DNA of 64,000 bases from Bauldia sp. (GTDB lineage: Bacteria > Pseudomonadota > Alphaproteobacteria > Rhizobiales > Kaistiaceae), in the NCBI GenBank assembly GCA_020853895.1, contig JADYYB010000121.1, forward strand, positions 470-64,469, given 5' to 3'. Below are positions 19,144 through 44,217 of the stretch, in pieces. Position 1 is the first letter of the stretch; each line of letters opens with the position of its first letter. A model generated the notes under the pieces. It saw only the letters and a list, made by a program, of their open reading frames with translations. It did no database searches and had not been told where the DNA came from. The translations under genes and the position numbers were made by a program.

Positions 19144-20097
19144 ATGAAACTGACACTCGGCCCGACACTCTTCAACTGGCCGCCCGCCAAATGGCAGGAC
19201 TTCTACTTCCGGATCGCCGACGAGGCGCCTGTCGACGCCGTGGCCATCGGCGAGGTCGTGTGCTCCAAGCGGATCCCGCTTCTGGCCGATCGAGTGCCGG
19301 CTGTGGTCGATCGCCTCGCGCGCGCCGGGAAAGAAGTCCTTCTCTCGTCCCTGGCACTCGTCACGCAGGCGCGTGAGCGAAAGTCGACGATCGATCTCGC
19401 CGAGTCTGAGCACATGATAGTGGAGGCGAACGACATGTCCTGTCTCGCTCGCCTTGCCGGACGACCGCATGTCATCGGCCCGTTCATCAATATCTACAAC
19501 GAGGCCACTGCGCAGTTCTTCTCGCGAAGGGGGGCAGCCCGGATCTGCCTGCCGCCCGAGTTGCCCATGCCGTCGATAGCGGCAATTGCCAAGGCCGTCC
19601 CCGACGTCGTCGTCGAGGTGCTCGCCTTCGGACGGATACCGCTCGCCATCTCCGCCCGATGCTATCACGCACGCCTCTACGGGCTGTCGAAGGACAATTG
19701 CCAATTCGTCTGCGTGAACGATGCCGACGGGGTCGTCGTCGACACACTGGACGGGGAAGGAATCCTGGCAATCAATGGTGTGCAGACCCTCTCTCACAGC
19801 GCCATCGATCTCATCGCCGATCTCGATGAGCTCACCTCGATCGGCGTGGGCGCCTGTCGCCTGTCGCCGCTCTCATGCGACATGGTGGCAGTCGCCGCGC
19901 TCTTCCGCGCCGTCCTCGACGGCCGCCTCGACGGGGAAGAAGCGCGCGGCCGCCTGATCTCGATCTACCCGCAGGTTCCCCACTCGAACGGCTTTCTCCA
20001 CGGCCGCGCCGGTGCCGACTGGATCGACCCGCTCAGTCCTCCGCGATCAGCTGCAGGCGCGGCAGATCGAGAAGGCGCACGCCCTTCGGCACGATAA
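19144..20097 (+). CDS. ubiV: U32-family O2-independent ubiquinone hydroxylase subunit UbiV
   Basis: 317 aa starting 1 nt after the ubiU stop. The Cys pattern EVVCSKR...ARCYHARLYGLSKDNCQFVC (C..C-x12-C-x3-C) matches the one reported for UbiV. Confidence 0.85.
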   Translation: MKLTLGPTLFNWPPAKWQDFYFRIADEAPVDAVAIGEVVCSKRIPLLADRVPAVVDRLARAGKEVLLSSLALVTQARERKSTIDLAESEHMIVEANDMSCLARLAGRPHVIGPFINIYNEATAQFFSRRGAARICLPPELPMPSIAAIAKAVPDVVVEVLAFGRIPLAISARCYHARLYGLSKDNCQFVCVNDADGVVVDTLDGEGILAINGVQTLSHSAIDLIADLDELTSIGVGACRLSPLSCDMVAVAALFRAVLDGRLDGEEARGRLISIYPQVPHSNGFLHGRAGADWIDPLSPPRSAAGAADREGARPSAR

Positions 20098-24057: not shown

Positions 24058-24071
24058 TTGATCTCGATCAA
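24058..24071. promoter_or_regulatory. FNR/FixK-type box TTGATCTCGATCAA
   Basis: Perfect palindrome. The centre is 70 bp upstream of the nnrU ATG (24135) and 84 bp from the moeA ATG (23980). Confidence 0.65.
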
Positions 24072-24867: not shown

Positions 24868-24881
24868 TTGACCGGGATCAA
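24868..24881. promoter_or_regulatory. FNR/FixK-type box TTGACCGGGATCAA
   Basis: Perfect TTGA-N6-TCAA. The centre is 62 bp upstream of ATG 24937. Confidence 0.65.
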
Positions 24882-24936
24882 AGTCTCTCCGCCGTGAAGC
24901 GTCCTATTGTTCTTCTCCAAATCGTACGGCCGGTTG

Positions 24937-26133
24937 ATGATCGATCCTGTCGACCTCATCACGTATTCCTCGGACGCGGCTCTCGTCATAAGCGCGAACC
25001 AGCGTGTCCTTGTCGCAAACAAGGCCGCCCGCGATCTCCTCGGACGTGAGGGCGCCGCGAAGCTCGACCTCGGTTGCAACGAGCTCCTTCGGGCGCGTCA
25101 GGTCGACGGCGGCGATATCTGCCGTCGTCAATGCAAGGCGATCACCGATCTTCGGCGCCTTCGTCCTTACGCCCACGACCGATGCTTGCTCCGGCGCGCA
25201 GACGGGACCCATTTCGAAGCGAGCCTTCGCACCATCGCGCTCCCGGACGAAAGCACAGCATCCGATCGCCCTGTGGCGATCGTGTTCATCACTCCCTTCG
25301 AACCGTCCCGCGGACCGACCGACGAGCCTCGACTCGAGATCCGCACGCTCGGCCGGTTCAGCCTGTCCTATCGAGAGAGCCGCATTCCCATCGACATGTG
25401 GGCCCGCAAACAGGCCGTCGAGCTCCTGAAGCTTCTCGTCGTTCAAGCCGGACGGCCGGTTCATCGCGAACGGCTAATCGAGCACTTCTGGCCCGAGACG
25501 CCGGAGGAGATCGCTTGGGCCCGCCTCAAGGTTACCGTGCACTCTCTCCGCCACGAGCTACGCGAGGCCGGCTGCCCGGAGAAGCTGATCGAGACCGCGG
25601 ACTGCTCGTATGTGCTTCGCACCGACAAGGTTTGGATCGATGCCCTGGCCTTCGATGAAATGGTTCGAAAGGCTCGCGCGTGTCAGCATGCCGGCAAGAT
25701 CGGCGAGGCGATACAGGCCTACGATGCGGCCAGGCAGCTCTATCGTGGCGACTTCATGGAGGCCGATCTCTACGCCGACTCCTATGCCGAGGAGCGCGAG
25801 CGTCTCTGCGAGCTCTATCTGGAGCTCCTGACCTCCCTCGCGGAGCTGCGCTTTCGGGCGGGGGACTTCGCCGCCGCCCTTCAGGATTGCCACGCCGCAC
25901 TTGCGCGGGAGCCCTGCCGCGAGAGCGTCCACCGGCTGCTGATACGCTCGTTGATCGGCCTCGATCGTCCCTGGAACGCGCTCGAGCAATTCGACCGCTT
26001 CCGCCGCGTGCTGAGGAATGAGCTCGGCGTGGACCCCAGTCCCGAGACCGAGGCCATCGTCGCCCCCCTCCTTCATTCCGCCCTCGCAAAAGCCGGGCAC
26101 CGCCCGCGACTAGCCCAAGGAGCCGTCACATGA
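24937..26133 (+). CDS. PAS-like sensor fused to SARP/BTAD (AfsR/DnrI-type) winged-helix transcriptional regulator
   Basis: Track ORF 24907 (TTG)..26133, with the first ATG at 24937. The N-terminus is PAS-like. This is followed by LEIRTLGRFSLSYRESRIPIDMWARKQAVELLKLLV...RERLIEHFWPE (OmpR/SARP wHTH) and a BTAD/TPR-like tail (AIQAYDAARQLYRGDFMEAD...). Confidence 0.8.
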   Translation: MIDPVDLITYSSDAALVISANQRVLVANKAARDLLGREGAAKLDLGCNELLRARQVDGGDICRRQCKAITDLRRLRPYAHDRCLLRRADGTHFEASLRTIALPDESTASDRPVAIVFITPFEPSRGPTDEPRLEIRTLGRFSLSYRESRIPIDMWARKQAVELLKLLVVQAGRPVHRERLIEHFWPETPEEIAWARLKVTVHSLRHELREAGCPEKLIETADCSYVLRTDKVWIDALAFDEMVRKARACQHAGKIGEAIQAYDAARQLYRGDFMEADLYADSYAEERERLCELYLELLTSLAELRFRAGDFAAALQDCHAALAREPCRESVHRLLIRSLIGLDRPWNALEQFDRFRRVLRNELGVDPSPETEAIVAPLLHSALAKAGHRPRLAQGAVT

Positions 26134-26686: not shown

Positions 26687-27700
26687 CTATCCGCCGGTCA
26701 TGCTCATGTGACGGGAGATGGAAGGGGCGCGGCCGCGGTCGATGACAAACTCATGTCCCCGGGGTTTCAGGAAGATCGCCCGGTCGATTGCGGCGTGGAG
26801 GAGGTCGTCCTCCTTCGAGGCGCGGAGCGGCGCCCGCAGATCGACGGCGCTCTCCTGGCCGAGGCACATGAAGAGCGTGCCGGTGCAAGTGACCCGGACG
26901 CGATTGCAGCCTTCGCAGAAATTGTGCGTGAGGGGCGTGATGAAGCCGAGCCGACCGCCGGTCTCCTCGACGCGGACGTAGCGCGCAGGCCCGCCGGTAC
27001 GCAAGGGAAGGTCGGTCAAGGACCAGCGTCCGGCGAGCTGCTGCCGGACGAGAGATAGCGGCAGAAACTGGTCGGTGCGATCAGGCTCGATGTCGCCCAG
27101 CGGCATGGCCTCGATGAGCGTCAGCTCCATGCCGCGCCCGTGTGCCCATTCGATGAGCGAGGGGATCTCGTCCTCGTTCGTGCCCTTGAGGGCGACCGTG
27201 TTGATCTTGACGGCGAGCCCGGCCGACCGCGCCGCGTCGATGCCGGCGAGGACCTTGCCCAGGTCGCCCCCTCGAGTGGTGAGGCGGAATGCCACCGGGT
27301 CGAGCGTGTCCACCGACACGTTGATGCGACGGACGCCACAAGCCGCCAGCTCGGCGGCATATCTCGCAAGCTGCGTGCCGTTGGTCGTGAGCGTCAGCTC
27401 CTCGAGGCCGCCACCGTCGAGATGGCGGGAGAGCATCCGGAAGAGCTCCAGCACGTTACGTCGCACGAGCGGCTCGCCGCCGGTGATGCGGAGCTTGCGC
27501 ACGCCGCGCATGATGAATGCGTTGGCCAGGCGGTCCAGCTCCTCCAGGGTCAGAAGCTCCGCCTTGGGCAGGAAGGTCATGTGCTCCGACATGCAGTAGA
27601 CGCAGCGTAGGTCACAGCGGTCGGTGACCGAGATGCGAAGATAGGTGACGCTGCGACCAAAGCGGTCCACCAGCGGCGAAGAGCACCCTGTTCTGATCAT
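26687..27700 (-). CDS. moaA: GTP 3',8-cyclase MoaA (radical SAM)
   Basis: 337 aa: [17 protein letters not shown], with the C-terminal cluster [13 protein letters not shown] and terminal GG. Confidence 0.95.
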
Positions 27701-27743
27701 CCTGAATTATCAGCATACGTCTCGAGATGCTGATTGAGCTGCG

Positions 27744-28400
27744 TCAATCTCGATTCCTGGGGTCTGGCCAGGCGCCCATCTCCAGGGCCCCTGCCCTCAC
27801 CAACCCGCCGATGAAATCGGCCAGAGCGCCAACCTCGTCGCGCCTGAAGCTCGGAGTCCCGGGAAGCGGCGCACCGTCGGAAACCAGAGCCACCGTGTCG
27901 GCATCGCCGTTTGCGTGGAGTGGCGGCGGGTCTTCTCCCGAGCGAATCTCGATGCGCTTCATTGGAATGCTCTTGAACCCCTCCACCAGCACGAGATCGA
28001 CTGGGGAAAGCCGCCGGAGAATATCGGCAAGATCTGGCGGCTCAGTCGCGTCCTCTCTCCGTTCGTGCAGAATGGCCCAGCGGCTTCTGGAGAACATGAC
28101 GACATCCACCGCGCCCGCCTCGCGGTGCACGAAGGTATCCTTCCCAGGTTGATCAAGATCGATCGCGTGGTGGACATGCTTGACGGTCGAGACCGATATT
28201 CCGCGCGCCCGCAGCGCGGGGATCAGGCGCGAGATCAGCGTGGTCTTGCCGCTGTTCTTCCAGCCCGCGACGCCGAGCACCTGGGGAAGCGCGATCGGGT
28301 TTCCCGCTGGCTGTGCGCGAAAGGCAGAGCTGTGTTCGAGGTCCCGACCTGGTTCGGCGTCCTCGTGCTTCACCCGCAACGATGGCTTCAAGGCTTTCAT
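27744..28400 (-). CDS. mobB: molybdopterin-guanine dinucleotide biosynthesis adaptor MobB
   Basis: C-terminal part of track ORF 27744..29084. ATG 28400 overlaps the narK stop. It carries the P-loop GVAGWKNSGKTTL, plus VKHVHH and LVLVEGFK. The roughly 35-aa N-terminal extension is uncertain. Confidence 0.8.
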   Translation of the reverse strand: MKALKPSLRVKHEDAEPGRDLEHSSAFRAQPAGNPIALPQVLGVAGWKNSGKTTLISRLIPALRARGISVSTVKHVHHAIDLDQPGKDTFVHREAGAVDVVMFSRSRWAILHERREDATEPPDLADILRRLSPVDLVLVEGFKSIPMKRIEIRSGEDPPPLHANGDADTVALVSDGAPLPGTPSFRRDEVGALADFIGGLVRAGALEMGAWPDPRNRD

Positions 28401-29842
28401 GCTGCCTCCTTCTTGCGCGACGGGACTGGCGAGGCCGGCGGCGACGACGGCCCGGTCGGGGCGGTGCTCCGACGCTCGATATCGCGGAGGTGGCCGCCCC
28501 GGCGCGTGTAGGCAAGGAAGGTCAGCGCCGCGCAGCTCGCGTAGAAGACCATGAAGACCCAGAGCGCCGCATCGGCCCCGCCCGTCAGCTGAATCGAGCT
28601 GCCATAGGCCATGGGGATGAAGAACGCGCCGAAGGCGGCCACCGCTGACGTGAAGCCGATGATCGCGGCCGACTCCTTCTCCGCCTCCCGGGCCCGCTCT
28701 TCCGCCCGCGCGCTCGGCATGAGGCGATCCATCTCCTTCCGCATGATCGCCGGGATCATCTGGAAGGTCGAGGCGTTGCCGACGCCCGCGAGGAAGAAGA
28801 GGGACATGAAGATCGTGAAGAAGGCCCAGAAGCTGCCGAGGGCGAGCGAGAGGAGGACACCTCCGGTCGCCGGTATCATCAGCACGAACACCCAGAAGGT
28901 GACGCGCCCACCGCCATAGCGATCCGATATCCAGCCGGTCGCCGCCCGAGAGGCCGCGCCCACCAGCGGCCCGAGAAAGGCGTATTGGAGCGAGTCGACC
29001 GCCGGGAACTGGGTCTTCATGAGAAGCGGAAAGCCGGCCGAATACCCTATGAACGAACCGAACGTTCCGAGGTAGAGCCAGCACATGATCCAGTTATGCC
29101 GGCGACGAAAGATGACCGCCTGGTCGCGAAACGAGGCGCGCGCTGCAGCGATGTCGTCCATGCCGAGCCAGGCGGCGAGCGCAGCGGCGAGGATGAAGGG
29201 CACCCAGACATAGCCCGCGTTCTGCAGCCAGACATGCCCCTCGACCCCATTCTGGACGTGGATTTGCGGGTCTCCCCCGACGGCCGCGAAGACCCCGATG
29301 CCGATGATCAGCGGCACGGCGAACTGCATCACCGACACACCGAGATTGCCGAGCCCGGCGTTGATGGCGAGCGCGTTCCCCTTTTGCGATTTCGGGAAGA
29401 AGAAGGAGATATTGGCCATCGACGAGGCGAAGTTGCCGCCGCCCAGCCCGCAAAGGAGGGCGAGGATGAGAAACACCGAGTAGGGCGTCGCCGGATTCTG
29501 GACTGCGAGCCCGATGCCCACCGCCGGGATGAGCAGGGACAGAGTGGAGAGCGTGGTCCAGAGGCGTCCTCCGAAGATCGGCACCACGAACGAGTAGATC
29601 GCGCGCAGTACCGGACCGGAAAGACCTGGGAACGCTGCCAGCCAGAAGAGCTGGCCGGTGTCAAACGCAAACCCCACCAGCGGCAGCTTCGCCACCACGA
29701 CCGACCACACCATCCACACCGCGAAGGAGAGGAGGAGGTTGGGGACCGAGATCCAGAGGTTGCGTTGGGCGACCGCCCTTCCCCGTTCCTGCCAGAAGCG
29801 CGGCTCCTCGGGCCGCCAGTCGGTGATGATGCGAGTGCCCAT
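28397..29842 (-). CDS. narK: MFS nitrate/nitrite transporter, NarK2-type (antiporter-like)
   Basis: 481 aa: WRPEEPRFWQERGRAVAQRNLWISVPNLLLSFAVWMVWS, with 12 TM segments. Confidence 0.9.
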   Translation of the reverse strand: MGTRIITDWRPEEPRFWQERGRAVAQRNLWISVPNLLLSFAVWMVWSVVVAKLPLVGFAFDTGQLFWLAAFPGLSGPVLRAIYSFVVPIFGGRLWTTLSTLSLLIPAVGIGLAVQNPATPYSVFLILALLCGLGGGNFASSMANISFFFPKSQKGNALAINAGLGNLGVSVMQFAVPLIIGIGVFAAVGGDPQIHVQNGVEGHVWLQNAGYVWVPFILAAALAAWLGMDDIAAARASFRDQAVIFRRRHNWIMCWLYLGTFGSFIGYSAGFPLLMKTQFPAVDSLQYAFLGPLVGAASRAATGWISDRYGGGRVTFWVFVLMIPATGGVLLSLALGSFWAFFTIFMSLFFLAGVGNASTFQMIPAIMRKEMDRLMPSARAEERAREAEKESAAIIGFTSAVAAFGAFFIPMAYGSSIQLTGGADAALWVFMVFYASCAALTFLAYTRRGGHLRDIERRSTAPTGPSSPPASPVPSRKKEAA

Positions 29843-29878
29843 GGGTGCTCCTTGATCCGTTCGCGTCGTGCGTCCTTC

Positions 29879-31240
29879 TCAGTCGGCCATGCGGACGACG
29901 GCACTGGCCGGGGCGTCTCCCGTTTGCTGGGGGCGCGGATAGGGTTGCTCGGGGAGGTCGCTGAGCTCGGTCTCGGCGGCCAGTTGCGGATGGCGGCGGA
30001 CTTCGGTCCGGCGGATGGCGACGTGCATCCAGACCGTGGAGACGCCGACGAGGGCGAACAGCAGCATGAAGCAGCTGCTCCAGACGCCGGTGAGATCGTT
30101 GAAGATGCCGAAGACGATGGGCAGCACGAAGCCGCCCAGCCCGCCGATCATGCCGACAAGGCCACCGACCGAGCCGACGTGGTAGGGATAGTAGACGGGA
30201 ATGTGCTTGTAGACCGCGGCCTTGCCCAGCGACATCACGAAGCCGAGGATGATGGTGAGGAGCGTGAAGAGCGGCACGTTGAGGCCGAAGGCGAAGGTGA
30301 TCGGCCCGTTGATGCCGGTGACGACGTATTGGGTCTCCGGATAACTCAGGATGAAGAGCGCGATCAGCGAAACGATGAAGGTGAGATACATCACGAACCG
30401 CGCGCCCCAGCGATCCGACATCCATCCCCCCAGGGCGCGGAATACCGAGCCGGGAAGGGCGTAGGCGGCCGCTAGCGCGCCGGCGGTCTTGAGGTCGAGC
30501 CCATAGGCGCCGACATAGTACCGCGGCAGCCAGCTCGCGAGCGCCACGAACGCCCCGAAGACGAAGAAATAGTAGGTGGCGAAACGCCAGACCTGGACCT
30601 TCTTGAGCGGCTCGAGCTGCATGGCGGCAGAGACCTTCACGCCGCCCCGCTCCCTCTCCGCCTGCGCCGGATCGTCCCGCATCAAGGCAAAGGCGGCGAC
30701 CGCCATGCCGGCAAGGATGAGGGCGTAGATCTGGGCGGTCCGCTCCCATCCGAACGCCACGACCAGGAACGGCGCCCCGAACGTGGTGACCGCCGAGCCC
30801 ATGTTTCCCATCCCGAAGATGCCGAGCGCGGTGCCCTGCGCCTTGGTGGGAAACCAGTGCGAGACGTAGGTCACTCCGACGATGAAGCTGCCGCCGGCGA
30901 GGCCCACGCCGAGCGCGGCGACGAGAAGCCAGCCGTAGCTGTCGGCCCAGGACAGAAGGAAGGTCGCCACGGCGCTGGCCAGCATGACCAGGGTCATGAC
31001 CAGCCGCCCGCCATACTGCTCGGTCCAGATCCCCAGCATCACGCGGCTGATCGAACCGCTGAGCACCGGCGTCGCGACGAGAAGACCGAACTGGGTCTCG
31101 GAGAGTCCCAGCTCCTGTTTGATCCTCACCCCGATGATCGAGAAGATCGTCCACACCGCGAAGCAGGTGGTGAACGCCACCGTGCTGACGCCGAGAGCGC
31201 GAAACTGCTGTCCACGGGTTGTACGCGGAAGCCGATCCAT
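29879..31240 (-). CDS. narK: MFS nitrate transporter, NarK1-type
   Basis: 453 aa: FRALGVSTVAFTTCFAVWTIFSIIGVRIKQELGLSETQFGLLVATPVLSGS, with 12 TM segments. Confidence 0.9.
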   Translation of the reverse strand: MDRLPRTTRGQQFRALGVSTVAFTTCFAVWTIFSIIGVRIKQELGLSETQFGLLVATPVLSGSISRVMLGIWTEQYGGRLVMTLVMLASAVATFLLSWADSYGWLLVAALGVGLAGGSFIVGVTYVSHWFPTKAQGTALGIFGMGNMGSAVTTFGAPFLVVAFGWERTAQIYALILAGMAVAAFALMRDDPAQAERERGGVKVSAAMQLEPLKKVQVWRFATYYFFVFGAFVALASWLPRYYVGAYGLDLKTAGALAAAYALPGSVFRALGGWMSDRWGARFVMYLTFIVSLIALFILSYPETQYVVTGINGPITFAFGLNVPLFTLLTIILGFVMSLGKAAVYKHIPVYYPYHVGSVGGLVGMIGGLGGFVLPIVFGIFNDLTGVWSSCFMLLFALVGVSTVWMHVAIRRTEVRRHPQLAAETELSDLPEQPYPRPQQTGDAPASAVVRMAD

Positions 31241-31261
31241 ATGATCACCCTTCCCGTACCC

Positions 31262-32764
31262 TCACGGCGTTGCCGCAAGCGCCCCGTTGAGCGTTCCCCT
31301 CGGCAGTATCTCGGCCCGCAGGTAGGCGACGAGCGCCCAGATCTCCTCGGGCGTGAGATAGCTGAACGAAGGCATCAGCGGAGCGTCGCCATTGGGGATG
31401 CCGGCTGCGATGCGGTAGTAGAGCTGCACCGGATCGGTGCCGGCCTTGACCTCGCCGGCGGCAAGATTGGCCGGAGGAAGGGGATGGCCGGGGAAGTCCT
31501 CGATGAACGCGGCCGCGTCGCCGTCGCCCGCTCCCCTCGCCCCGTGGCAGGAGGCGCAATTGTCGGCGTAGAGCTGCCGCCCCTGTCCCCGGAGCTCCTG
31601 GGTGAACGGCGGTTGAGGCGTGACCGCCACCGCCGGCCCTGGCTCAGGCCGCTCGACCCAGAGGCGATCGAGGACGGTGACCAGGCTCGCCACCTGCTCC
31701 TCCGTGAGCGCCGCGAAGCCGGGCATGCCCGAACTCGGCAGCCCTTCGACGATCACGTGGCGGAGATCGGCGTCCGACGCTATGCCGCTCTGGGTGGAGA
31801 CGAAGCGGTAGAGGCCGGCCGTGAGGTCGCGCGGAAGCGTGCCGAAAGTCGGCGAGTCCTTGCCCAGCCCGTTGCCGTCGCCCGAGACGCCGTGGCAGCG
31901 GGCGCATTGGCTGACATAGAGCGGGTAGCCGTTCTGCACCCCGCGGTCGGCGACCGTGTCGGCGGCGGCGACCTCCACGGCGGGAGTCGTCAGATCTAGA
32001 CCGCCGAGGGTGGGGGGCCGAATGAGGAAGGCGGCGGCGACGAGGATCAGCACCATGGAGGCCGCGAAATAGGTGAGGAACGACTTGTCGGTGCGGAGCG
32101 CGAATTCCCACTTCCGGCGGAACTTGTTCGCCGCGGTCCGCATCGATTGGTAGGGCCTCACCGCGATGTTGATCGGGTACGTCCAGACGTGGATGAGCTT
32201 GGTGAAGGGGAAGTACGCCGCAAACAGGAAGCCCAGAAGGACGTGGATCTGGGTGAAGAGCCCTGCCCCCGCCATGAGCTCGGGCTCCGGCCGGAAGCGC
32301 CAGAGGCTCGCGAACCAGGCAGCGCCTGGGAAAGCCGCGCCCCAGATCCGGTCGATCACCGACTGGTAGAGGCCGAGGGCGATGATGGCGATGATGAAGA
32401 GATGAACGACATAGTCGTCGAGCTGGCTCAGCGCCCGCACCTCGGGAACGGTCAGCCGGCGCACGAGCGCGACGAACGAGCCGACGATCGCCATCGCCCC
32501 ACCGACGAGACCGATCCAGAAGAAAGCGCCCACCGCCACTTGCGATCCGACAAGGCCGCCGAAGAAGCCGGAGAGATGGCCAATGAAGAGGAGGATGATG
32601 CCCCAGTGCAGGAGCAGCGAGGCGAAGCCGAGGACGCCCCGGTTGAACATGCCGCTGGCGCGCGTGGTCAGCCCGAAGGGCCTGTAGATCATCCTGATGA
32701 ACGGGACGACGAAGAACAGCGTCAGGGCGACATAGGGGAAGACCGCCCAGAGCAGTGTGCTCAT
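31262..32764 (-). CDS. narI: respiratory nitrate reductase gamma subunit NarI fused to an extra TM helix and a C-terminal dihaem cytochrome c domain
   Basis: 500 aa. The NarI core (about residues 1-205) has both haem-b His pairs (HWGIILLFIGH; IHVLLGFLFAAYFPFTKLIH). An extra TM spans about residues 229-248. This is followed by CARCH (287-291) and CASCH (403-407), with Met candidates in GMPGF and LMPSF. Confidence 0.9.
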   Translation of the reverse strand: MSTLLWAVFPYVALTLFFVVPFIRMIYRPFGLTTRASGMFNRGVLGFASLLLHWGIILLFIGHLSGFFGGLVGSQVAVGAFFWIGLVGGAMAIVGSFVALVRRLTVPEVRALSQLDDYVVHLFIIAIIALGLYQSVIDRIWGAAFPGAAWFASLWRFRPEPELMAGAGLFTQIHVLLGFLFAAYFPFTKLIHVWTYPINIAVRPYQSMRTAANKFRRKWEFALRTDKSFLTYFAASMVLILVAAAFLIRPPTLGGLDLTTPAVEVAAADTVADRGVQNGYPLYVSQCARCHGVSGDGNGLGKDSPTFGTLPRDLTAGLYRFVSTQSGIASDADLRHVIVEGLPSSGMPGFAALTEEQVASLVTVLDRLWVERPEPGPAVAVTPQPPFTQELRGQGRQLYADNCASCHGARGAGDGDAAAFIEDFPGHPLPPANLAAGEVKAGTDPVQLYYRIAAGIPNGDAPLMPSFSYLTPEEIWALVAYLRAEILPRGTLNGALAATP

Positions 32765-32767
32765 CTC

Positions 32768-33481
32768 TCAACCTCCTGCGGCAACAGCGTCGCCAGGACG
32801 CTCGGCCGCGCTTTCCGTCTTGCGATACGAGATCACGGTTGCCGGCGGCCGCCCCGCCCGCTTGGGCGGCTCCCAGGCCGGCCCGTCGCCGTGCAGCGCG
32901 CGGTCCGCCTCGACCGCGCCCTCGAGCGCGGCGACGAGGAGCGCGTAGGGCGACTCGCGCTGCGCGAGGGCCGCGCGCATCGGCGCGAGGCCCGGCCGGA
33001 AATAGGTGTCCACGAAACGGCGGCGGAGCCCGATCCTGTCGCGCTCCGGATGTCCGAGGCTGATGGCGAGGAACTCGGCCATCGCGGGGAGGAAGTCCGC
33101 GAGCTCGTTCCTCCCCAGCTCGAACCCGAAGTGCCGGTACGCCGCCGCCACCTCGATCATGTAGCCGTTGCGTCCCGACAGCCCGGCGCCGAGACAAGTC
33201 TCCGGCTCGTCGAAGATGTAGGCGCCGAGATAGAGCGGACACGGCGGGGCGAGCTCGAGGACCGCCAGATACTCGTCCGGATCGGCGGCCCGCCGCTCGC
33301 CCAGGAAAGCAAGGATCGGCGCCGCGAACGCCGCCGGCGCCCCCCGCAGCGTTGCGAGCCCTTCGGCGATCCGATCGCCGTCGCGCTCCTCCGGATAGAG
33401 GAAGAGCTCGGCCACCGTCTCATAGACGGCGGCCAGCTGATCCGGCCCGATCGCGTGGAGCGGGGTGGTCACCGTCTCCAT
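32768..33481 (-). CDS. narJ: nitrate reductase molybdenum cofactor assembly chaperone NarJ
   Basis: ATG 33481 lies 1 nt after the narH stop. The sequence reads AVYETVAELFLYPEE...YLAVLELAPPCPLYLGAYIF. Confidence 0.9.
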   Translation of the reverse strand: METVTTPLHAIGPDQLAAVYETVAELFLYPEERDGDRIAEGLATLRGAPAAFAAPILAFLGERRAADPDEYLAVLELAPPCPLYLGAYIFDEPETCLGAGLSGRNGYMIEVAAAYRHFGFELGRNELADFLPAMAEFLAISLGHPERDRIGLRRRFVDTYFRPGLAPMRAALAQRESPYALLVAALEGAVEADRALHGDGPAWEPPKRAGRPPATVISYRKTESAAERPGDAVAAGG

Positions 33482-33482
33482 G

Positions 33483-35024
33483 TCAGCTCTCCACGCCCAC
33501 ACCCTGACCGTGGAACGACTGCCGCCGGCGCGGGCTCTTGCCTGGCGCCAGCTCGTTGAAACCGGCGAAGCCGCGCTCGATGTAGGGCGCGCTGGTCGTC
33601 GTCTCGGTGTGCGTGGTCGCGATGACGAACCGCTCGTGGTAGTGCGCGAGCGCCAGCAGGCGGTGCATGTCCCGGGCGTCCTGCTCGGTGAGACCCACCC
33701 GGCTCAGGACCGACACGTCGGCCTTGCCTTCCACCCGCTCGCTGCGCCGGTAGGCGCGCACCGCGAGCTGGCGGTTCAGCGCCTTCTCGACCTCCGCGTG
33801 GTTGCCGGCGGAGAGCATGCTGGCGAGATACTCGATCGGGATGCGGAACTCCTCGAGGCTGGGGAGGACGCCCTCACCCACCATGTCGTATCCCTCACGC
33901 CCCGAGCTGGCGTTGGCGACCGGGCTTTCCGGCGGGATGTAGAAGAGGCTCGGCAGCGTCCTGAATTCGGGATGGAGGGGCAGCGCGATCTCCCACTCCT
34001 TGACCATCTTGTAGACGGGCGAGCGGCGGCAGGCGTCGAGCCAGGCTTCGGTGACGCCGGCTTCGCGCGCCGCCTCGATCACGTCGGGGTCGTTCGGGTC
34101 GAGGATCAGCTCGCGATGCCGCGCCACCAGCTCCCTGGTATTGGCATTGGCGACCTCCGCCACGCGATCCATGTCGTAGAGGATCGGGCCCAGATAGCGG
34201 ATGCGGCCGGGACAAGCCTGGAAGCAGGCCGGGGCCTGCCCGGTCTCGATGCGGGGGTAGCAGAGAATGCACTTCTCGGACTTGCCGGTACGCCAGTTGT
34301 AGTAGGTCTTCTTGTAAGGGCAGCCCGACACGCAGAGGCGCCAGCCGCGGCAACGCTCCTGGTCGATGAGGACGATGCCGTCCTCCTCCCGCTTGTAGGC
34401 GGCGCCGGACGGGCACGACCCGACACATGCCGGGTTGAGGCAGTGATTGCAGATCCGCGGCAGGTACATCATGAACGCGTCGCGGAAGCTCAGATAGGTC
34501 TTCCGCGCCGCCGGGGTCATGGCGGCGAAATTTACGTCGTGCTTCCCGGTGCCGTCCTCGTGCGTGCCGGCGCCGTTGTCCTCCCAGTTCACGCCGTAGG
34601 TGATCTCGATGTCTTCTTCGCCGCTGATCTGCGATTTCGGCCGCGCGACCGGCTGGGAGAAGCGCGTCGGCTCGGTCGAATGGAGGTCCTCATAGGTGAA
34701 GGTGAACGGACCTTTCCCATAGTACTCTTCCATCTGCGGCATGACCGGGTTGTAGAAGAGATTGATCATCTGCCAGAACCGCGACGCCTGGTTCAGCTTG
34801 GGCTGGTCGCGACCCGGGTTCTGCACCCACCCTCCCCGGTACTTGTTCTGATCCTCCCAATTCTTGGGATAGCCGATCCCTGGTTTGGTCTCGACATTGT
34901 TCCAGAACATGTATTCCGCGCCTTCGCGGTTGGTCCACACGTTCTTGCAGGCGATCGTGCAGGTGTTGCACCCCAGACATTTGTCGAGGTTGAAGACCAT
35001 CGCCATCTGCTGTTTGACTCTCAT
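33483..35024 (-). CDS. narH: respiratory nitrate reductase beta subunit NarH
   Basis: 513 aa: MRVKQQMAMVFNLDKCLGCNTCTIACKNVWT..., with four Fe-S Cys groups. Confidence 0.97.
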   Translation of the reverse strand: MRVKQQMAMVFNLDKCLGCNTCTIACKNVWTNREGAEYMFWNNVETKPGIGYPKNWEDQNKYRGGWVQNPGRDQPKLNQASRFWQMINLFYNPVMPQMEEYYGKGPFTFTYEDLHSTEPTRFSQPVARPKSQISGEEDIEITYGVNWEDNGAGTHEDGTGKHDVNFAAMTPAARKTYLSFRDAFMMYLPRICNHCLNPACVGSCPSGAAYKREEDGIVLIDQERCRGWRLCVSGCPYKKTYYNWRTGKSEKCILCYPRIETGQAPACFQACPGRIRYLGPILYDMDRVAEVANANTRELVARHRELILDPNDPDVIEAAREAGVTEAWLDACRRSPVYKMVKEWEIALPLHPEFRTLPSLFYIPPESPVANASSGREGYDMVGEGVLPSLEEFRIPIEYLASMLSAGNHAEVEKALNRQLAVRAYRRSERVEGKADVSVLSRVGLTEQDARDMHRLLALAHYHERFVIATTHTETTTSAPYIERGFAGFNELAPGKSPRRRQSFHGQGVGVES

Positions 35025-35027
35025 AGC

Positions 35028-38000
35028 TCAGCCTCCAATCCCCAGTTCGCGTTCCTGGTAGATGACCTTCCGTCCATCCCTCTCGGGCGGCTTCTTGCGG
35101 ATAAGCACCGCGCAGTCGCGCTCGGAGGGGCTGGTGCCCTGATAGTTGAGCCAGTAGGTCCAGTTGGCGTAGCCGCCGACCATCGTGGCTGGGTTCATCA
35201 TGATGCGGGTCGGCGCGTTGTTGTTTCCGCCGCGGAGGTCCGTCATTCCCCGCTCGCGCGCAAGCGAGGAGAACGGAACGCCGATATGTCGCTCAGACGA
35301 GTGGTAGAAGATCGCCATGTCACGCGGGACGGTATTGCTGACTACGGCCCGTACTACGCTGATGCCGTTCTCGTTGAAGACCTCGACCCAGTCGTTGTCT
35401 CGAACATCTATCTGGCGGGCGTCATCATCGTTGATCCAGATCACTTGTCCGCCGCGGGACAGGTTGAGCATCTGCCAAGTGTCCCAGAACATCGAGTGGA
35501 TCGACCACTTGCCGTGCGGGGTGATGTAGCGGAAGAGCTTGGCGCCCTTCATTTGCAGATCCTTCGAGGACACGTCGCCGATCTTCACCATGTCCACCGG
35601 AGGCTTGTAGGTCGGGAGATCCTCGCCTAGTTCGCGGAACATGCGATGGTCGTAGTAGATCTCCTGCCGGCCGGTGAGCGTGTGCCACGGCTTCAGCGTC
35701 TCGATGTTGAGGGTCCACGGGCAGTAGGTCCGCCCGGCGCTTTCGATCGCCGACCAGTGCGGCGAGGTGATCGAACGGCGCGGCTGCGAGATGAGATCGG
35801 TGAAATGGTGGCGCACCTCGCGCTCAGGCTCGACCAGGTGGGCGAGCTTGAGCCCGGTCTGCTTCTCGAGGCCTTCGAAGAGCTTGTGCGAGATCTCGCC
35901 GTCGCTCTCCGGCGAGATGCGAAGGATGATCTCCGCCACCTGCCGCGCGTCGTCCATCGCCGGCCGGCCGTCCTTCTCGCCGACCAGGTAGCTCTCCTTG
36001 AGCTCCTCGTAGGCCTCCGAGATGTCCCCCCTGATGCCCTTGGCGCCGTAGCCGCCGGGCTGGGCGATCTTCGGGCCCAGCGAGGAGTACATGTCGAAGA
36101 TCTTCGAGTAGTCGCGCTTGACGATACTGATATTGGGGAAGGTCTTGCCGGGGATCGGATCGGTCCCCTCCTCCTTCCAGTCGTGGAGCTCGCCGAAGGG
36201 CTGGGCCATCTCGTCCGGCGTGTCGGTCGAGAGCGCCGTCATCACGAGGTCTTCGATCGGCTCGGGCAGATAGTACTTAGCCAGCTCGCTGACCTTGGCC
36301 GCGATCAGCCTGAAGATCTCCCAGTCGTGCTTGGCCTCCCATGCCGGATCGTGCGCCGGCGTGAAGGGATGGAAGAACGAGTGCAGGTCGGTGCAGGTGA
36401 GGTCGTACTTCTCGTACCAGTGCGCCGTGGGAAGAACGATGTCCGAATAGTTGGCGGACGAGTCCATCCGGAGGTTGAGGTTGTAGATGAGGTCGAGCTT
36501 TCCAAGCGGCGCCTGCTCGTGCCACTCGATCTCCTTGACCAGATCCTCGGCGCGATCCTCGCCGAGCACATTGTTATGCGTGCCCAGCATATGTTTGAGG
36601 TTGTACTCGTGGCCGCGCATGCTGGTGCCGATGAGATTGCCGCGGTAGATCCACATCACCTTCGGATGGTTCTCGGGCGCATCAACGTCCTTGAGCGCGA
36701 AGTCGAGCTTGCCTGCCTTGAACTGGCCGGCGACCCACTTCCTGACCTGCTCGTCGGTCTTGCACCCGGCGGCACGGGCCTCCTTGAGGACGTTGATCGG
36801 GTTCTTCTTGTCGAACTGCGGGAAGAAGGGCAGCCACCCATTCCGCAGGGCGAGCATGTTCATGTCCGCCGAGTGCTTGGCTTTCTTGGGGAATATCTCC
36901 GCCCGTGGCGCCCATAGCGGGTCGAGCGGCATCCCGTCGTACCGCCACTGGTCGGTGTGGAAGTAGAAGTAGGAGGTCGAGTTCATCTGCCGGCCGACAT
37001 TGCCCCAGTCGGCCGCGCCGCCGAGATTGCCGATCGCCGCAAAGGTGCGGATCTTCTCGGTGCCCACATAGTGGGCGAAGCCGCCCCCGTTCACGCCTTG
37101 GCAGCCGGTGAGGATGCCCATCACCGCCTCGGCGCGGTAGGTCAGCGTTCCGCCGTGGTACCAGTGGAGGATGCCCGAGCCGGTGATGAAGAGGCACTTG
37201 CCCTTGGTCTTCTCCGCCGTGTCGGCCCACTCCCGCGCCACGCGGATCGCCATGTTGCGGTCGACGCCCGTCTCCTGTTCCTGCCAGGCGGGCGTATAGG
37301 GCTGCGAGGCGTCGTCGTAGTTCTTGGGATATTGGCCCGAGAAGCCGCGGTTGATCCCGAACTGGGCCAGCAGCAGATCGTACGCCGTCGTCACATGGAC
37401 CGGCCCCGACTTCGTCTCGATGACCCGGGTCGGCACGCCGCGGAGGCTGGGCCGCGCCAGCGCTCCCTTTCCTTCCGTGGTGCCCAGCTCGGTGTTGAAG
37501 GTGTGGGTGAAGTCCGCGAACTCCACCTGGACCTCCTCGTACTTGCCGTCGGCGAGCGTGAGGAGCGGGTCGAACGGCTTGCCGCTGACCGCGTCTTCCT
37601 GTTTGAGGTTCCAGCGTCCGGTCTTCTTCTTCTCCCAGCGGAAGCCCAGCGATCCGCCGGGGAGCCGGAGCTCACCGCTCTTGTCGAAGAGCGGCATCTT
37701 CCACTCGGCATTCTCCTCGCCGGCATATTGATTGAGGTCGCTCGCCCGCAGGAACCGCCCGCCGAGATAGCGGTCGCCCTTCTGCTCGAGCATGACCAGG
37801 AAAGGAAGGTTGGTGTACTTGCCGATATATTCGTGGAAGTAGGGAGCACGCCGGTTGATGTGGAATTCCTGCAGGATCACATGGATGCACGCCATCAGGA
37901 AGGCGGCGTCCGTACCCGGCCGGACCGGCACCCAGAGATCGGCGAACTTGGTCACGTCCGAGTAGTCGGGCGACAGGTTCACCAACTTGCCGCCGTTGTA

Positions 38001-38798
38001 CTTGAACTCCGACGCGAAGTGCGCATCCGCGGTGCGGGTCATCGGCAGGTTGGAGCCCATCACGATCCAGTAGGCGCTCTGGTACCAGTCGGCCGACTCG
38101 TGAACGTCGGTCTGGTCTCCCCAGATCATCGGCATGATGTGCGGGAGGTCGTGATACCATTCGTAGAAGCTCAGCATCGTCCCGCCGAGCAGGTTGCTGA
38201 GCCGGTGGCCGGACAGGAAGCTCACCATGCTCATCGCCGGGATCGGCGAGAACGAGGCGAGGTGGTCGGGCCCATACTCCTTGATGGTGTGGATCTTGGC
38301 GGCGGCGATGATCTCGGTGACCTCCTCCCAGGTCGACCGGCGCCAGCCTGCCTTGCCGCGCGCGTTCCGGTAGGCCTTCGAGCGCTGAGGATCGTTTACG
38401 ATCGCAGCCCACGCCTCGACCGGTCCCTTCCCCGCCTCGCGCTCCGCCCGGTAGAAGTCGAGAAGGACGCCGCGCACGTAGGGGTATTTCGGGCGGACCG
38501 GGCTGTAGGGATACCAGGACGAAGATATGCCACGCTGGCAGCCGCGCGGTTCGTAGTTCGGGGTGTGGTCGTTGATCTGCGGCCAGTCGGTCTTCTGCAG
38601 CTCCCAGGTGATCATGCCGTCCTTGACGAACACCTCCCAGGAGCACGAGCCCGAGCAGTTGACGCTATGGCTGGTGCGCACCGAGCGGTCGTAGGACCAC
38701 CGGCGCCGGTAGAACTCCTCCCAGCCACGCGGCTCGTCGAGGACCCTGAACCACCGCGAGCCCTTCCCGTTGCTGCCATTCCCGTTGCGGTTGCTCAT
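35028..38798 (-). CDS. narG: respiratory nitrate reductase alpha subunit NarG
   Basis: 1256 aa. The FS0 motif HSVNCSGSCSW is present and NarG-type sequence continues throughout. Confidence 0.97.
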   Translation of the reverse strand: MSNRNGNGSNGKGSRWFRVLDEPRGWEEFYRRRWSYDRSVRTSHSVNCSGSCSWEVFVKDGMITWELQKTDWPQINDHTPNYEPRGCQRGISSSWYPYSPVRPKYPYVRGVLLDFYRAEREAGKGPVEAWAAIVNDPQRSKAYRNARGKAGWRRSTWEEVTEIIAAAKIHTIKEYGPDHLASFSPIPAMSMVSFLSGHRLSNLLGGTMLSFYEWYHDLPHIMPMIWGDQTDVHESADWYQSAYWIVMGSNLPMTRTADAHFASEFKYNGGKLVNLSPDYSDVTKFADLWVPVRPGTDAAFLMACIHVILQEFHINRRAPYFHEYIGKYTNLPFLVMLEQKGDRYLGGRFLRASDLNQYAGEENAEWKMPLFDKSGELRLPGGSLGFRWEKKKTGRWNLKQEDAVSGKPFDPLLTLADGKYEEVQVEFADFTHTFNTELGTTEGKGALARPSLRGVPTRVIETKSGPVHVTTAYDLLLAQFGINRGFSGQYPKNYDDASQPYTPAWQEQETGVDRNMAIRVAREWADTAEKTKGKCLFITGSGILHWYHGGTLTYRAEAVMGILTGCQGVNGGGFAHYVGTEKIRTFAAIGNLGGAADWGNVGRQMNSTSYFYFHTDQWRYDGMPLDPLWAPRAEIFPKKAKHSADMNMLALRNGWLPFFPQFDKKNPINVLKEARAAGCKTDEQVRKWVAGQFKAGKLDFALKDVDAPENHPKVMWIYRGNLIGTSMRGHEYNLKHMLGTHNNVLGEDRAEDLVKEIEWHEQAPLGKLDLIYNLNLRMDSSANYSDIVLPTAHWYEKYDLTCTDLHSFFHPFTPAHDPAWEAKHDWEIFRLIAAKVSELAKYYLPEPIEDLVMTALSTDTPDEMAQPFGELHDWKEEGTDPIPGKTFPNISIVKRDYSKIFDMYSSLGPKIAQPGGYGAKGIRGDISEAYEELKESYLVGEKDGRPAMDDARQVAEIILRISPESDGEISHKLFEGLEKQTGLKLAHLVEPEREVRHHFTDLISQPRRSITSPHWSAIESAGRTYCPWTLNIETLKPWHTLTGRQEIYYDHRMFRELGEDLPTYKPPVDMVKIGDVSSKDLQMKGAKLFRYITPHGKWSIHSMFWDTWQMLNLSRGGQVIWINDDDARQIDVRDNDWVEVFNENGISVVRAVVSNTVPRDMAIFYHSSERHIGVPFSSLARERGMTDLRGGNNNAPTRIMMNPATMVGGYANWTYWLNYQGTSPSERDCAVLIRKKPPERDGRKVIYQERELGIGG

Positions 38799-39691
38799 GA
38801 CGTGCTGTCCTCGCTGAGGGTGGCCGGCGCGCCCTGCTCGAGGAGGGCGCGGCGGAAGGCGTCGACGAATGGCCGGAAGTCGCGGACCGTGCCGTAGATG
38901 GCGACCACCGCGTTGCGGGTGCGGTCGTAGACGAGGTTGACCGCCGCGGTGCGCCCGATCGGGTGCTTGCTGGCGGCGCCGCCATGATCGGCCCAGTCGT
39001 CACGGAGCGCCTGGAGGGAGGCGTAGTAGAGGTCGGTCCTCGGGTGGACCTGCCACCAGATGCGAATCTCCCACTCGGGGATGCGCACGCTCGTCTCAAC
39101 GCTGTCGGCGGCCGAGTCGTGAGGGTCGATATCCCACTGGAACACCGGGAGCTCGCCCTCGTATGAACTGCCCGAGGCCATCGGCCCGTCGAATGGCTGC
39201 GGCGGCTCCATGCCGGGATGGCCCTCCGGCCGGTGACCGGCGTCGGTGACGTCGTTCCGGAGGACGTCCGGCTCGCCGACCATGCCCTCCTCGAGGAGCT
39301 CGGCCTGGAGCGGGTTCATCACCTCCGAGCCGGTCATCGCGCGGTCGATCTCGGCGTCCGAGTCGGCCTCGGCGAGGATCGGGCTCCGCGCCTTCTCCGC
39401 GCCATTATGCGGCGTCTTCCGAAGCACCATCTCCGCCTCCGCGAAGGGGAGCACCGTCACGATCCGGACCGGCCGGATCTCCGCTTCGGTGAGCGCGGCG
39501 CGAATGCCCTGCTCCATCTCCGCCACCTTCTTGTTGTTGGTGGAGTTGGGAGCGAAGCGGACCAGCACGCCCGACTCGTCGGTGACGATTTCCTTCACGA
39601 AACCCGCGGTCACGATGTCGCGGGAAAAGCCCGGATAGGGAACAGTCCGCAGCAACTCCCGAATTCGGTCCATAGAAACCACGCCTGTCAC
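38795..39691 (-). CDS. hypothetical protein: DUF59/MIP18-like N-terminal domain plus unknown C-terminal domain, translationally coupled to narG
   Basis: 298 aa. Its stop overlaps the narG ATG (ATGA). The N-terminus MDRIRELLRTVPYPGFSRDIVTAGFVKEIV...VLVRF resembles the Mrp/ApbC N-terminal (DUF59) domain. I do not recognise the acidic linker or the C-terminal 120 aa. The start is GTG 39691 or ATG 39673. Confidence 0.7.
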   Translation of the reverse strand: MTGVVSMDRIRELLRTVPYPGFSRDIVTAGFVKEIVTDESGVLVRFAPNSTNNKKVAEMEQGIRAALTEAEIRPVRIVTVLPFAEAEMVLRKTPHNGAEKARSPILAEADSDAEIDRAMTGSEVMNPLQAELLEEGMVGEPDVLRNDVTDAGHRPEGHPGMEPPQPFDGPMASGSSYEGELPVFQWDIDPHDSAADSVETSVRIPEWEIRIWWQVHPRTDLYYASLQALRDDWADHGGAASKHPIGRTAAVNLVYDRTRNAVVAIYGTVRDFRPFVDAFRRALLEQGAPATLSEDSTS

Positions 39692-40043: not shown

Positions 40044-40057
40044 TTGACGTGGATCAA
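40044..40057. promoter_or_regulatory. FNR/FixK-type box TTGACGTGGATCAA in the nar / nnrS-hemN divergent region
   Basis: Perfect TTGA-N6-TCAA. It lies about 124 bp from ATG 39920 (minus strand) and about 135 bp from GTG 40185 (plus strand). Confidence 0.7.
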
Positions 40058-43255: not shown

Positions 43256-43663
43256 TCAATGGTGTGGGTGTGCTCCGAGCCTCCCATGGAGACGCGCATC
43301 GTGGGTCTTCGAGTGCTCCGTGAACCAATGGTCAAGTTCACGTGCCAGTCGCCCCGAACTGCCGGCCGGGTCGGCCTCATAGCCGTCCATGATGTCGCGG
43401 ATCTCGTCCAGCAGCCGCTCGTGATCGTGCTTGTGCTCGGCGTACTCATCATAGTCGTGTTCGCGCATGAACCGCTCCTCCAGGGCGAAGTGGGAGGAGA
43501 TTGCCCGAAAGATATCGCCGAGAATCGCTTCGATCGGTCGCGCGCCCCCGCCCAGCTTCAGTTCGTCGTCAAGCCGGTTGATGAGGTCCATCATCTCCCG
43601 GTGCTCATGATCGACGGCATCGTTGCCGATCCGATAGTGCTCTTTCCATTCCATGAGAGCCAT
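43256..43663 (-). CDS. bacteriohemerythrin (hemerythrin-like metal-binding protein)
   Basis: 135 aa: MEWKEHYRIGNDAVDHEHREMMDLIN...HFALEERFM...EHKHDHERLL...HWFTEHSKTHD, carrying the H/HxxxE/HxxxH/HxxxxD ligand pattern. AGGAG lies 8 nt upstream. Confidence 0.9.
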   Translation of the reverse strand: MALMEWKEHYRIGNDAVDHEHREMMDLINRLDDELKLGGGARPIEAILGDIFRAISSHFALEERFMREHDYDEYAEHKHDHERLLDEIRDIMDGYEADPAGSSGRLARELDHWFTEHSKTHDARLHGRLGAHPHH

Positions 43664-43674: not shown

Positions 43675-44217
43675 CTAGTTCGCCTGGATCGCCCCCACCC
43701 CCTCGTCGCCGTCGGAGGAGAAAACGAAGCCCCCCGCGCCTGTCTTGAAATCGATGACCGCATGTTGTGCCGGCGCCAGCACGACGTGCCGGCTCGCCGT
43801 GTAGTCGAAGCCTTCGGTGGCCGGGTTGTCTCGCATCCGCACTGCGATGTCATGTTCGCCCGCCATCAGCCGGAACTGCTCGTGGATGCGCGACGGGCCG
43901 TCACCGGCAACGCCTGAAGGCGGCAGCTCGCCTTCGAAGAGCCGAGCGCCGTCCACGCTGAGCTCGACGAATACAGGTGGACGCCTCCGCGGGCAGATCT
44001 CGGTGCGGCGCATGTTGGGCGGGAGGTCCGCGATCTCCTCCTCCGTGAGGGGACGGCAAGCCGCCCGTCTGTCGGCACCATGGCTGAACGACATCGTCAA
44101 GACCGCGGTATCGGCAGGGAGTGCCCGGAAGATCGGCTGGTTCGAGATCAGACTCGCGACGCTGATGACGAAAAAGAGAATGCCAAACTGGGCAAGGAGC
44201 CGGGCGCCGAGGATCAT
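43675..44217 (-). CDS. N-terminally membrane-anchored hypothetical protein, 180 aa
   Basis: Its ATG overlaps the upstream TAA (TAATG). It has a single TM (LLAQFGILFFVISVASLI) followed by a soluble domain of unknown family. Confidence 0.65.
   Translation of the reverse strand: MILGARLLAQFGILFFVISVASLISNQPIFRALPADTAVLTMSFSHGADRRAACRPLTEEEIADLPPNMRRTEICPRRRPPVFVELSVDGARLFEGELPPSGVAGDGPSRIHEQFRLMAGEHDIAVRMRDNPATEGFDYTASRHVVLAPAQHAVIDFKTGAGGFVFSSDGDEGVGAIQAN

Follow-up and report, generated by a model that had tools for sequence, protein, structure and literature searches.

The textbook respiratory nitrate reductase NarGHI exchanges electrons with the quinone pool only. In the Escherichia coli enzyme (PDB 1Q16), the N terminus of the membrane subunit NarI is periplasmic and its C terminus is cytoplasmic, and two histidine pairs ligate the proximal heme b (His56 and His205) and the distal heme b (His66 and His187). 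Here, we describe a gene cluster for an enzyme of this type in a 64,000-nucleotide stretch of DNA from Bauldia sp. (assembly GCA_020853895.1, contig JADYYB010000121.1, positions 470 to 64,469; the whole stretch is referred to below as the window), in which a single open reading frame (ORF), designated narI::cytc, encodes NarI, an additional transmembrane (TM) helix, and a diheme cytochrome c.

A cytochrome that associates with NarI is known from Thermus thermophilus. Its NAR1 operon (L082) has narC as a separate gene, as the initial annotation of the Bauldia stretch had pointed out for Thermus. The gene lies upstream of narG, and its product begins with a signal peptide, contains two CxxCH motifs, and is anchored at the C terminus. 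Thermus NarC binds NarI, is needed for growth on nitrite or NO when complex III is repressed, and has been proposed to branch electrons to Nir and Nor, replacing complex III; in narC mutants, NarG is soluble and immature (PMC7694296).

The nearest characterized relative is found in Thiocapsa sp. KS1 (L026), a phototrophic gammaproteobacterium that oxidizes nitrite. By exact-sequence look-up, its fused subunit (CRI68045.1/WP_093186280.1) is deposited as [quoted passage not shown] a name indicating that the depositors recognized a composite protein. The NarG of the same locus (CRI68048.1/WP_093186287.1) is deposited as "Nitrite oxidoreductase, alpha subunit," and these are the accessions given in the literature for KS1 NxrA. 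The literature regards nitrite oxidation by the KS1 nitrite oxidoreductase (NXR) as having arisen separately. The Nitrobacter/Nitrococcus-type NXR, by description, has nxrX between nxrA and nxrB and a separate cytochrome c, whereas narG and narH are adjacent in Bauldia, with no gene separating them.

KS1 NxrC and the Bauldia protein share the NarI domain, the sixth TM helix (TM6), and two CxxCH domains; both are encoded in the gene order orfX-narG-narH-narJ-narI::cytc, and they belong to the same clade. Between the two loci, amino acid identity amounts to 79% in NarG, 76% in NarH, 54% in the fused subunit, and 46% in the orfX product. The loci differ downstream, where genes for a TehA/SLAC1 channel and for a NasA-like enzyme follow in KS1, whereas Bauldia has a NarK1/NarK2 pair in a denitrification-type island rich in FNR boxes. 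Nitrite oxidation by the holoenzyme of this clade is reportedly known only for Thiocapsa strains, and the physiological direction of the enzyme may differ between KS1 and Bauldia.

The initial annotation placed the fusion outside the standard NarGHI description. E. coli NarI has neither TM6 nor c hemes, but the family is widespread and, with the KS1 member deposited as a modular NxrC, was already present in the databases. It is thus neither unique nor undescribed but under-described: RefSeq and most annotations of metagenome-assembled genomes (MAGs) label it merely "respiratory nitrate reductase subunit gamma"; full-text literature searches, which did not cover Hemp et al. 2016, returned no explicit account of a NarI-cytochrome c fusion.

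Domain architecture and heme ligands

Positions 31262 to 32764 of the window comprise a single ORF of 500 codons with an ATG start on the minus strand. The coordinates had initially been given without a strand, and a plus-strand reading of the same positions was rejected because it yields no ORF. The features of the fused gene are as follows:

31262..32764, minus strand, narI::cytochrome c ORF, 500 amino acids (aa), identical to MCC6983144.1 (MAG Bauldia sp.)
32081..32764, minus strand, NarI domain and cytoplasmic tail, residues 1 to 228, five TM helices (Pfam, hydropathy, heme-b His, fold match)
32021..32089, minus strand, TM6, residues ~226 to 248, clade specific (hydropathy peak, 2.44; AlphaFold2 helix, 226 to 247)
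31940..32020, minus strand, periplasmic linker, residues 249 to 275, variable, low confidence (alignment; predicted local distance difference test score [pLDDT] of <50 at 261 to 273)
31649..31939, minus strand, cytochrome c domain 1, residues ~276 to 372, with C287ARCH291 (31892-31906) and Met347 (Pfam, motif, alignment)
31301..31612, minus strand, cytochrome c domain 2, residues ~385 to 488, with C403ASCH407 (31544-31558) and Met464 (Pfam, motif, alignment)

The Pfam family Nitrate_red_gam (PF02665) covers residues 3 to 210 with 157.9 bits (cutoff, 22.9), while the NCBIfam equivalog TIGR00351 scores 95.4 bits, below its cutoff of 105.55; judged from these scores, the domain appears to be a divergent NarI. 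His53, His63, His174, and His192 align with E. coli NarI His56, His66, His187, and His205, respectively, which assigns His53 and His192 to the proximal heme b and His63 and His174 to the distal one. All four are invariant in 78 homologues. The C-terminal region matches Cytochrome_CBB3 (E value, 2e-21) and Cytochrom_C (E value, 6e-21) over two stretches each (PF13442 and PF00034). Both CxxCH motifs, Met347, and Met464 are likewise invariant among the 78 sequences, down to 51% identity, whereas the linker that follows TM6, although in frame with it, differs among homologues in both length and sequence. Invariant heme ligands combined with a variable linker are the pattern of a functional four-heme protein with a flexible tether. 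The complete NarI with both heme-b His pairs, the sixth TM helix, and the two CxxCH motifs with a Met ligand each, all proposed in the initial annotation, were therefore borne out.

Membrane topology and structural model

By hydropathy, the NarI domain has five helices, at residues 5 to 23, 43 to 61, 76 to 94, 119 to 137, and ~170 to 190. A loop (residues 190 to 228) holding 8 Lys or Arg residues leads to the sixth helix at 230 to 248, the most hydrophobic of all, which is followed by an acidic segment. TM6 is not present in the nearest outgroup NarIs (213 to 225 aa). The predicted cytoplasmic loops contain 15 Lys or Arg residues and the periplasmic loops 5, a bias that fits a five-helix NarI with its N terminus outside and its C terminus inside, so that all residues beyond TM6 would be periplasmic. 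Covalent attachment of heme c takes place only on the periplasmic side. Together with the confident prediction of TM6, these points agree with the earlier argument that the added helix places the c hemes in the periplasm.

The AlphaFold2 model, built from the 78 sequences, has a pLDDT of 86.6 and a predicted template modeling score of 0.87, with TM6 as a confident helix (226 to 247) and the linker disordered at residues 261 to 273. In Foldseek comparisons, its membrane half matched E. coli NarI with template modeling scores of 0.75 to 0.81, and no PDB chain spanning both the NarI and the cytochrome halves was found. A NarI with two b hemes that carries a tethered periplasmic diheme cytochrome of the His/Met class I type is thus largely established as the architecture of the protein. 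Such a subunit most likely forms a four-heme wire linking the cytoplasmic Mo site (via NarH and NarG) and the periplasmic cytochrome c pool. The c hemes would exchange electrons with the distal heme b and with soluble periplasmic carriers, providing a second port besides quinone.

Distribution and phylogeny of the fused clade

An identical intact ORF, flanked by narJ and narK, is present on a 4-kb contig of a separate Logan assembly of run SRR11294028. More than 120 clusters (90% identity) have the same three-domain architecture and are 51 to 87% identical to the Bauldia protein. In a scan of one genome per species, the fusion was found as a single ORF in ~75 species genomes from at least eight phyla, isolate genomes included, and all 18 translated fused loci (18/18) gave a product of 474 to 511 aa with exactly two CxxCH motifs. 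No stop or frameshift separating narI from a downstream cytochrome gene was found in the Logan assembly or in these species genomes.

The survey of NarI homologues called for in the initial annotation gave a sharp boundary. When the NarI domain alone was compared with 1.84 billion representatives, matches of at least 52% identity were fused proteins or fragments, and below these relatives, identity falls to at most 37%, the level of canonical NarIs of ~225 aa. In a neighbor-joining distance tree, the fused clade, including KS1 NxrC, is monophyletic with a long stem. In this tree, the alphaproteobacterium Rhodovulum is placed with the Chromatiaceae, a gammaproteobacterial family, a grouping that indicates horizontal transfer; in one locus, transposases flank the module. 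The orfX-narG-narH-narJ-narI::cytc unit is kept in nearly every locus with sufficient flank, and the NarG proteins of the module are 64 to 80% identical across Alpha- and Gammaproteobacteria, Deinococcota, Gemmatimonadota, Planctomycetota, Verrucomicrobiota, and Acidobacteriota. Plasmid-borne NarH proteins of E. coli, Paracoccus, Ralstonia, and Thermus, in comparison, are all at most 53% identical to Bauldia NarH. The Bauldia ORF can be assigned with near certainty to the membrane subunits of a separate clade of cytoplasm-facing NarGHI-type enzymes that moves horizontally, here called the Thiocapsa KS1 NxrC clade.

Nested within the fused clade, a small subclade (L077, L078 [1953-2720], L081, and P0124) has subunits of 254 to 255 aa that end right after TM6, while narGHJ and narK are retained. 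No cytochrome domain was found elsewhere in these loci, which lost the cytochrome secondarily. Variants of this kind, with the rest of the module kept, indicate that the core enzyme can work without the c hemes, which in turn suggests a functional quinol site. At the other extreme, a 614-aa protein from a Desulfobacterales MAG (P0082) has a third CxxCH domain (CFNCH) added at the C terminus of the fusion.

Origin of the cytochrome domain

The nearest solved relative of the whole diheme region is the best match in both sequence and structure, namely, Kuenenia stuttgartiensis Kustc0457 (PDB 6H5L chain B), with a phmmer E value of 1e-30 and a Foldseek template modeling score of 0.87 (6h5l_B; root mean square deviation, 2.2 Å; 34% identity). 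Kustc0457 is a soluble stand-alone diheme cytochrome c that serves as electron-transfer partner of the hydroxylamine oxidoreductase (HAO)-like protein Kustc0458, in another complex with no link to NarI.

We considered Thermus NarC as a source of the domain and rejected it, as BLASTP aligns only 19 to 21 residues around CxxCH and the topology of the anchor is opposite. A tblastn search of plasmids, including 14 narH-carrying Thermus plasmids, gave no Thermus match to the cytochrome domain at an E value of ≤1e-3. Common to the two systems is a periplasmic diheme c-type cytochrome physically attached to the NarI of a cytoplasm-facing Nar. However, in Bauldia the gene upstream of narG is orfX, which does not encode a cytochrome, and the cytochrome follows NarI at its C-terminal end, with TM6 as the anchor; the identities between the Thermus and Bauldia proteins are 35% for NarI and 48% for NarH. 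The likeness to Thermus NarCGHI is therefore one of convergent recruitment rather than a gene fusion of NarC: the same solution was made from a different cytochrome.

E. coli NarGHI resembles the Bauldia enzyme in the NarI fold, the four heme-b His residues, and a full-length NarG match (1152 bits). By structural alignment, E. coli NarI is at most 26% identical to the Bauldia NarI domain, in which the periplasmic loop between TM2 and TM3 is shorter. The Lys86 of the E. coli QD site aligns with A77 in Bauldia and with Trp in the clade consensus; several canonical NarIs also lack this Lys.

Other C-terminal fusions of canonical NarI were observed as well, with a SLAC1/TehA anion channel, a cytochrome b5, or a Rieske [2Fe-2S] domain (P0150, P0172, P0208, P0215, and P0239). 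NarI is likewise the N-terminal module in these proteins, but they belong to canonical NarI lineages that are ~26 to 30% identical to the Bauldia NarI domain.

The nar operon and its genomic context

In Bauldia, narI::cytc comes fifth in a compact operon on the minus strand, downstream of which lie two transporter genes and moaA:

38795..39691, minus strand, orfX, 298 aa, overlapping the narG start by 4 nucleotides (nt); DUF59/FeS_assembly_P-like N terminus (weak)
35028..38798, minus strand, narG, 1256 aa, cytoplasm-facing type, 79% identical to KS1 NxrA CRI68048.1
33483..35024, minus strand, narH (TIGR01660, 674 bits; cutoff, 524)
32768..33502, minus strand, narJ-like chaperone gene, stop 3 nt ahead of the narI start (TIGR00684 E value, 4e-13, below cutoff; module position)
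29879..31240, minus strand, NarK-family major facilitator superfamily transporter (NarK1-like), 21 nt downstream of narI::cytc
28397..29842, minus strand, NarK/NarU-type nitrate/nitrite transporter (TIGR00886, 325 bits; cutoff, 311.7)
26687-27700, moaA, downstream of the NarK pair

The orfX product is acidic and soluble and has no NCBIfam match. In nearly all loci of the fused clade, orfX opens the module, at the position that narC has in Thermus, and it probably encodes a clade-specific maturation factor. The genes of the nar module (26687-39691) have a GC content at third codon positions of 0.86 to 0.89, compared with 0.72 to 0.87 (mostly 0.73 to 0.85) in the remaining genes of the window, a difference that fits high expression or recent acquisition.

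The whole window was scanned for the FNR/Dnr/NnrR-type box consensus TTGATN4ATCAA. With at most one mismatch, 14 boxes were found versus 0.64 expected, and none of 100 shuffles reached 14. Boxes and the genes for anaerobic ubiquinone synthesis are located as follows:

40044..40057, FNR/NnrR-type box TTGACGTGGATCAA between the divergent genes orfX and nnrS
24058-24071, 24868-24881, 28149-28162, 45775-45788, 50385, and 51119-51132, further FNR-type boxes
18165-19142, plus strand, UbiU, ~12 kb from the nar operon
19144-20097, plus strand, UbiV, in the same region
15959-17656, minus strand, UbiD, in the same region

Many of the boxes precede nnrU (a perfect box), the gene for a BTAD regulator, nnrS/orfX, and the oxidase-like cluster, and the window would accordingly represent a dense low-O2/NO regulon, as read from these motifs. 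Genes for NnrS, NnrU, and hemerythrin lie near the nar operon. UbiU and UbiV, which function in O2-independent ubiquinone biosynthesis, score above their equivalog cutoffs (490 bits versus 440 and 366 bits versus 275, respectively), and UbiD adjoins them.

A regulator with winged helix-turn-helix and BTAD domains and a Cys-rich N-terminal region (24907-26133, plus strand) accompanies the module. With 34% identity, it is homologous to the regulator that sits next to the module in Trueperaceae, and the same regulator type occurs in sister loci with GAF (Trueperaceae) or PAS domains (L083 14224-16425; L084 251-1414). A relationship to Thermus DnrS was rejected, as no significant similarity was found. 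Sister loci also carry HemN and hemerythrin, which, like their BTAD regulators, speak for the nitrate-respiring direction.

Two further groups of genes in the window were noted. One is a cluster 14 kb from the nar operon with a very divergent heme-copper oxidase subunit I of 597 aa (46707-48500, minus strand; COX1 E value, 6e-64; 61 bits versus the CtaD cutoff of 670) and an adjoining SCO1/SenC gene (45837-46667, minus strand). Next to these are a 523-aa protein that unusually joins a b6/ExtP-like cytochrome b to two [4Fe-4S] motifs and to an FlpD-like domain (44217-45788, minus strand), a 180-aa ORF (43675-44217, minus strand), and a hemerythrin gene (43256-43663, minus strand); the FNR-type boxes at 45775 and 50385 belong to the same region. 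This could be a noncanonical NO reductase cluster. The other is a second molybdopterin oxidoreductase of 804 aa with an Fe4S4 domain (56149-58563, minus strand), the best weak matches of which are Fdh-alpha/NasC-like, all below cutoffs. A similar enzyme of 776 aa is encoded directly downstream of the KS1 NXR operon (L026 12883-15213).

Direction of electron flow

The initial annotation proposed that the fusion couples the quinol-oxidizing subunit of a nitrate reductase to periplasmic c-type carriers. Coupling of this kind is the natural reading of the architecture, although the flow may be the reverse, from nitrite to cytochrome c. In Bauldia, the NarK1/NarK2 pair, NnrS, NnrU, hemerythrin, UbiU, UbiV, UbiD, and the FNR-type boxes form a context that points to anaerobic nitrate respiration. 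We give even chances to a ubiquinol-oxidizing nitrate reductase whose c hemes branch electrons to periplasmic acceptors past the cytochrome bc1 complex. In this scheme, the enzyme would be induced by low O2 or NO and would act as a respiratory nitrate reductase, with ubiquinol oxidized on the periplasmic side of NarI. Electrons moving inward would pass through the proximal heme b and the iron-sulfur (FeS) chain to nitrate, while those moving outward would pass from the distal heme b to the c hemes and on to periplasmic acceptors, which may be nitrite, NO, or N2O reductases or oxidases. The outward branch would be a built-in bypass of bc1, like the role proposed for Thermus NarC (PMC7694296). 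The four-heme wire would be intrinsically reversible, and in KS1, it would presumably run from nitrite to the cytochrome c/high-potential iron-sulfur protein (HiPIP) pool; the direction of electron flow would depend on the host.

Several observations weigh against a quinol-fed nitrate reductase with an outward branch. Lys86 is not conserved, which leaves the quinol site unproven, and, the divergent heme-copper oxidase aside, no periplasmic sink of the nirS, nirK, nor, or nosZ type was identifiable in the 64-kb window. Moreover, the nearest characterized relative, KS1, operates in the opposite direction, and nitrite oxidation depends mechanistically on having a cytochrome c outlet, which for nitrate reduction is only optional.

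An alternative is that the Bauldia enzyme works mainly in reverse, as a nitrite:cytochrome c oxidoreductase (NXR) like that of KS1, which we regard as possible but rather unlikely. Nitrite would be oxidized in the cytoplasm, and the electrons would move through the FeS clusters and the b hemes to the c hemes, aided by the membrane potential, and from there via a periplasmic cytochrome c to an oxidase or, in phototrophs, to the reaction center. Such potential-assisted outward flow follows the classical Nitrobacter model. Judging from standard potentials, nitrite (+430 mV) would be unable to reduce quinone, so that an NXR needs the cytochrome c outlet that the fusion offers. The identities to KS1 (79% for NarG, 76% for NarH, and 54% for the fused subunit) are consistent with this direction, as are the wide occurrence of the module in Chromatiaceae and Rhodovulum, phototrophs not known for nitrate respiration, and the divergent heme-copper oxidase with SCO1 14 kb away. 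An Opitutaceae homologue has also been interpreted elsewhere as belonging to a possible nitrite oxidizer (PMC12361377). However, UbiU, UbiV, NnrS, NnrU, hemerythrin, and the FNR-type boxes indicate anoxia and NO. NarK1 and NarK2 lie downstream of the operon in nonphototrophs and not in Chromatiaceae, which suggests a different physiological use, and the natural cytochrome-less variants persist.

It is unlikely that the c hemes serve as an electron inlet, through which reduced cytochrome c made by bc1 would feed the b hemes and NarGH. Nitrate reduction would then depend on bc1 and would conserve more energy per electron than direct oxidation of quinol. In favor of an inlet, the wire is reversible in principle, class I domains with His/Met ligation typically pair with soluble cytochrome c, and Lys86 of the QD site is missing. 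On the other hand, the driving force from cytochrome c (~+250 mV) to nitrate (+430 mV) would roughly equal the cost of moving electrons inward against the membrane potential, which would put the reaction near equilibrium. The cytochrome-less variants, furthermore, retain the remaining module, and the nearby UbiU and UbiV suggest use of quinol.

A mainly structural role of the cytochrome domain, in the assembly, maturation, or membrane attachment of NarGH and with no catalytic electron transfer, seems highly unlikely. It would have a parallel in Thermus, where NarC is partly required for NarG maturation and narC mutants make soluble, immature NarG (PMC7694296), but the strict invariance of the CxxCH motifs and the Met ligands argues for redox-active hemes, and the natural variants that lack the domain imply that it is dispensable for assembly. 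Finally, the chance that an assembly or annotation artifact, such as a frameshift or missed stop, joined narI to a cytochrome gene is negligible, as no evidence for it was found and it is refuted by the intact ORF in the Logan assembly, in the >120 clusters, and in the ~75 species genomes, with TM6 and the linker in frame and conserved.

Implications

Through a covalently attached periplasmic diheme cytochrome, a NarGHI-type enzyme would gain, besides its exchange with quinone, a port that opens to the cytochrome c pool. In nitrate respirers, this port would permit an electron supply to the later steps of denitrification that is independent of bc1. In nitrite oxidizers, it would be a structural answer to how a cytoplasm-facing NXR reaches cytochrome c with the help of the membrane potential.

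A more far-reaching proposal, which we consider doubtful, is that, in nonphototrophic heterotrophs of at least eight phyla, the KS1-type module works as a nitrite:cytochrome c/nitrate oxidoreductase that is genuinely reversible, with Hyphomicrobiales, Planctomycetota of oxygen-minimum zones, Verrucomicrobiota, Gemmatimonadota, Deinococcota, Acidobacteriota, and others as hosts. If true, these organisms would form an unrecognized guild that either oxidizes nitrite, given an oxidant for cytochrome c, or reduces nitrate with electrons from cytochrome c at higher coupling, and the fused four-heme subunit would be its diagnostic marker in either mode.

The fused subunit is a cheap genomic marker of a distinct and mobile Nar/NXR clade. 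How metagenomic inventories of the nitrogen cycle are read depends in part on the direction in which the clade operates in nature, for instance in oxygen-minimum zones, in groundwater, and in soils.

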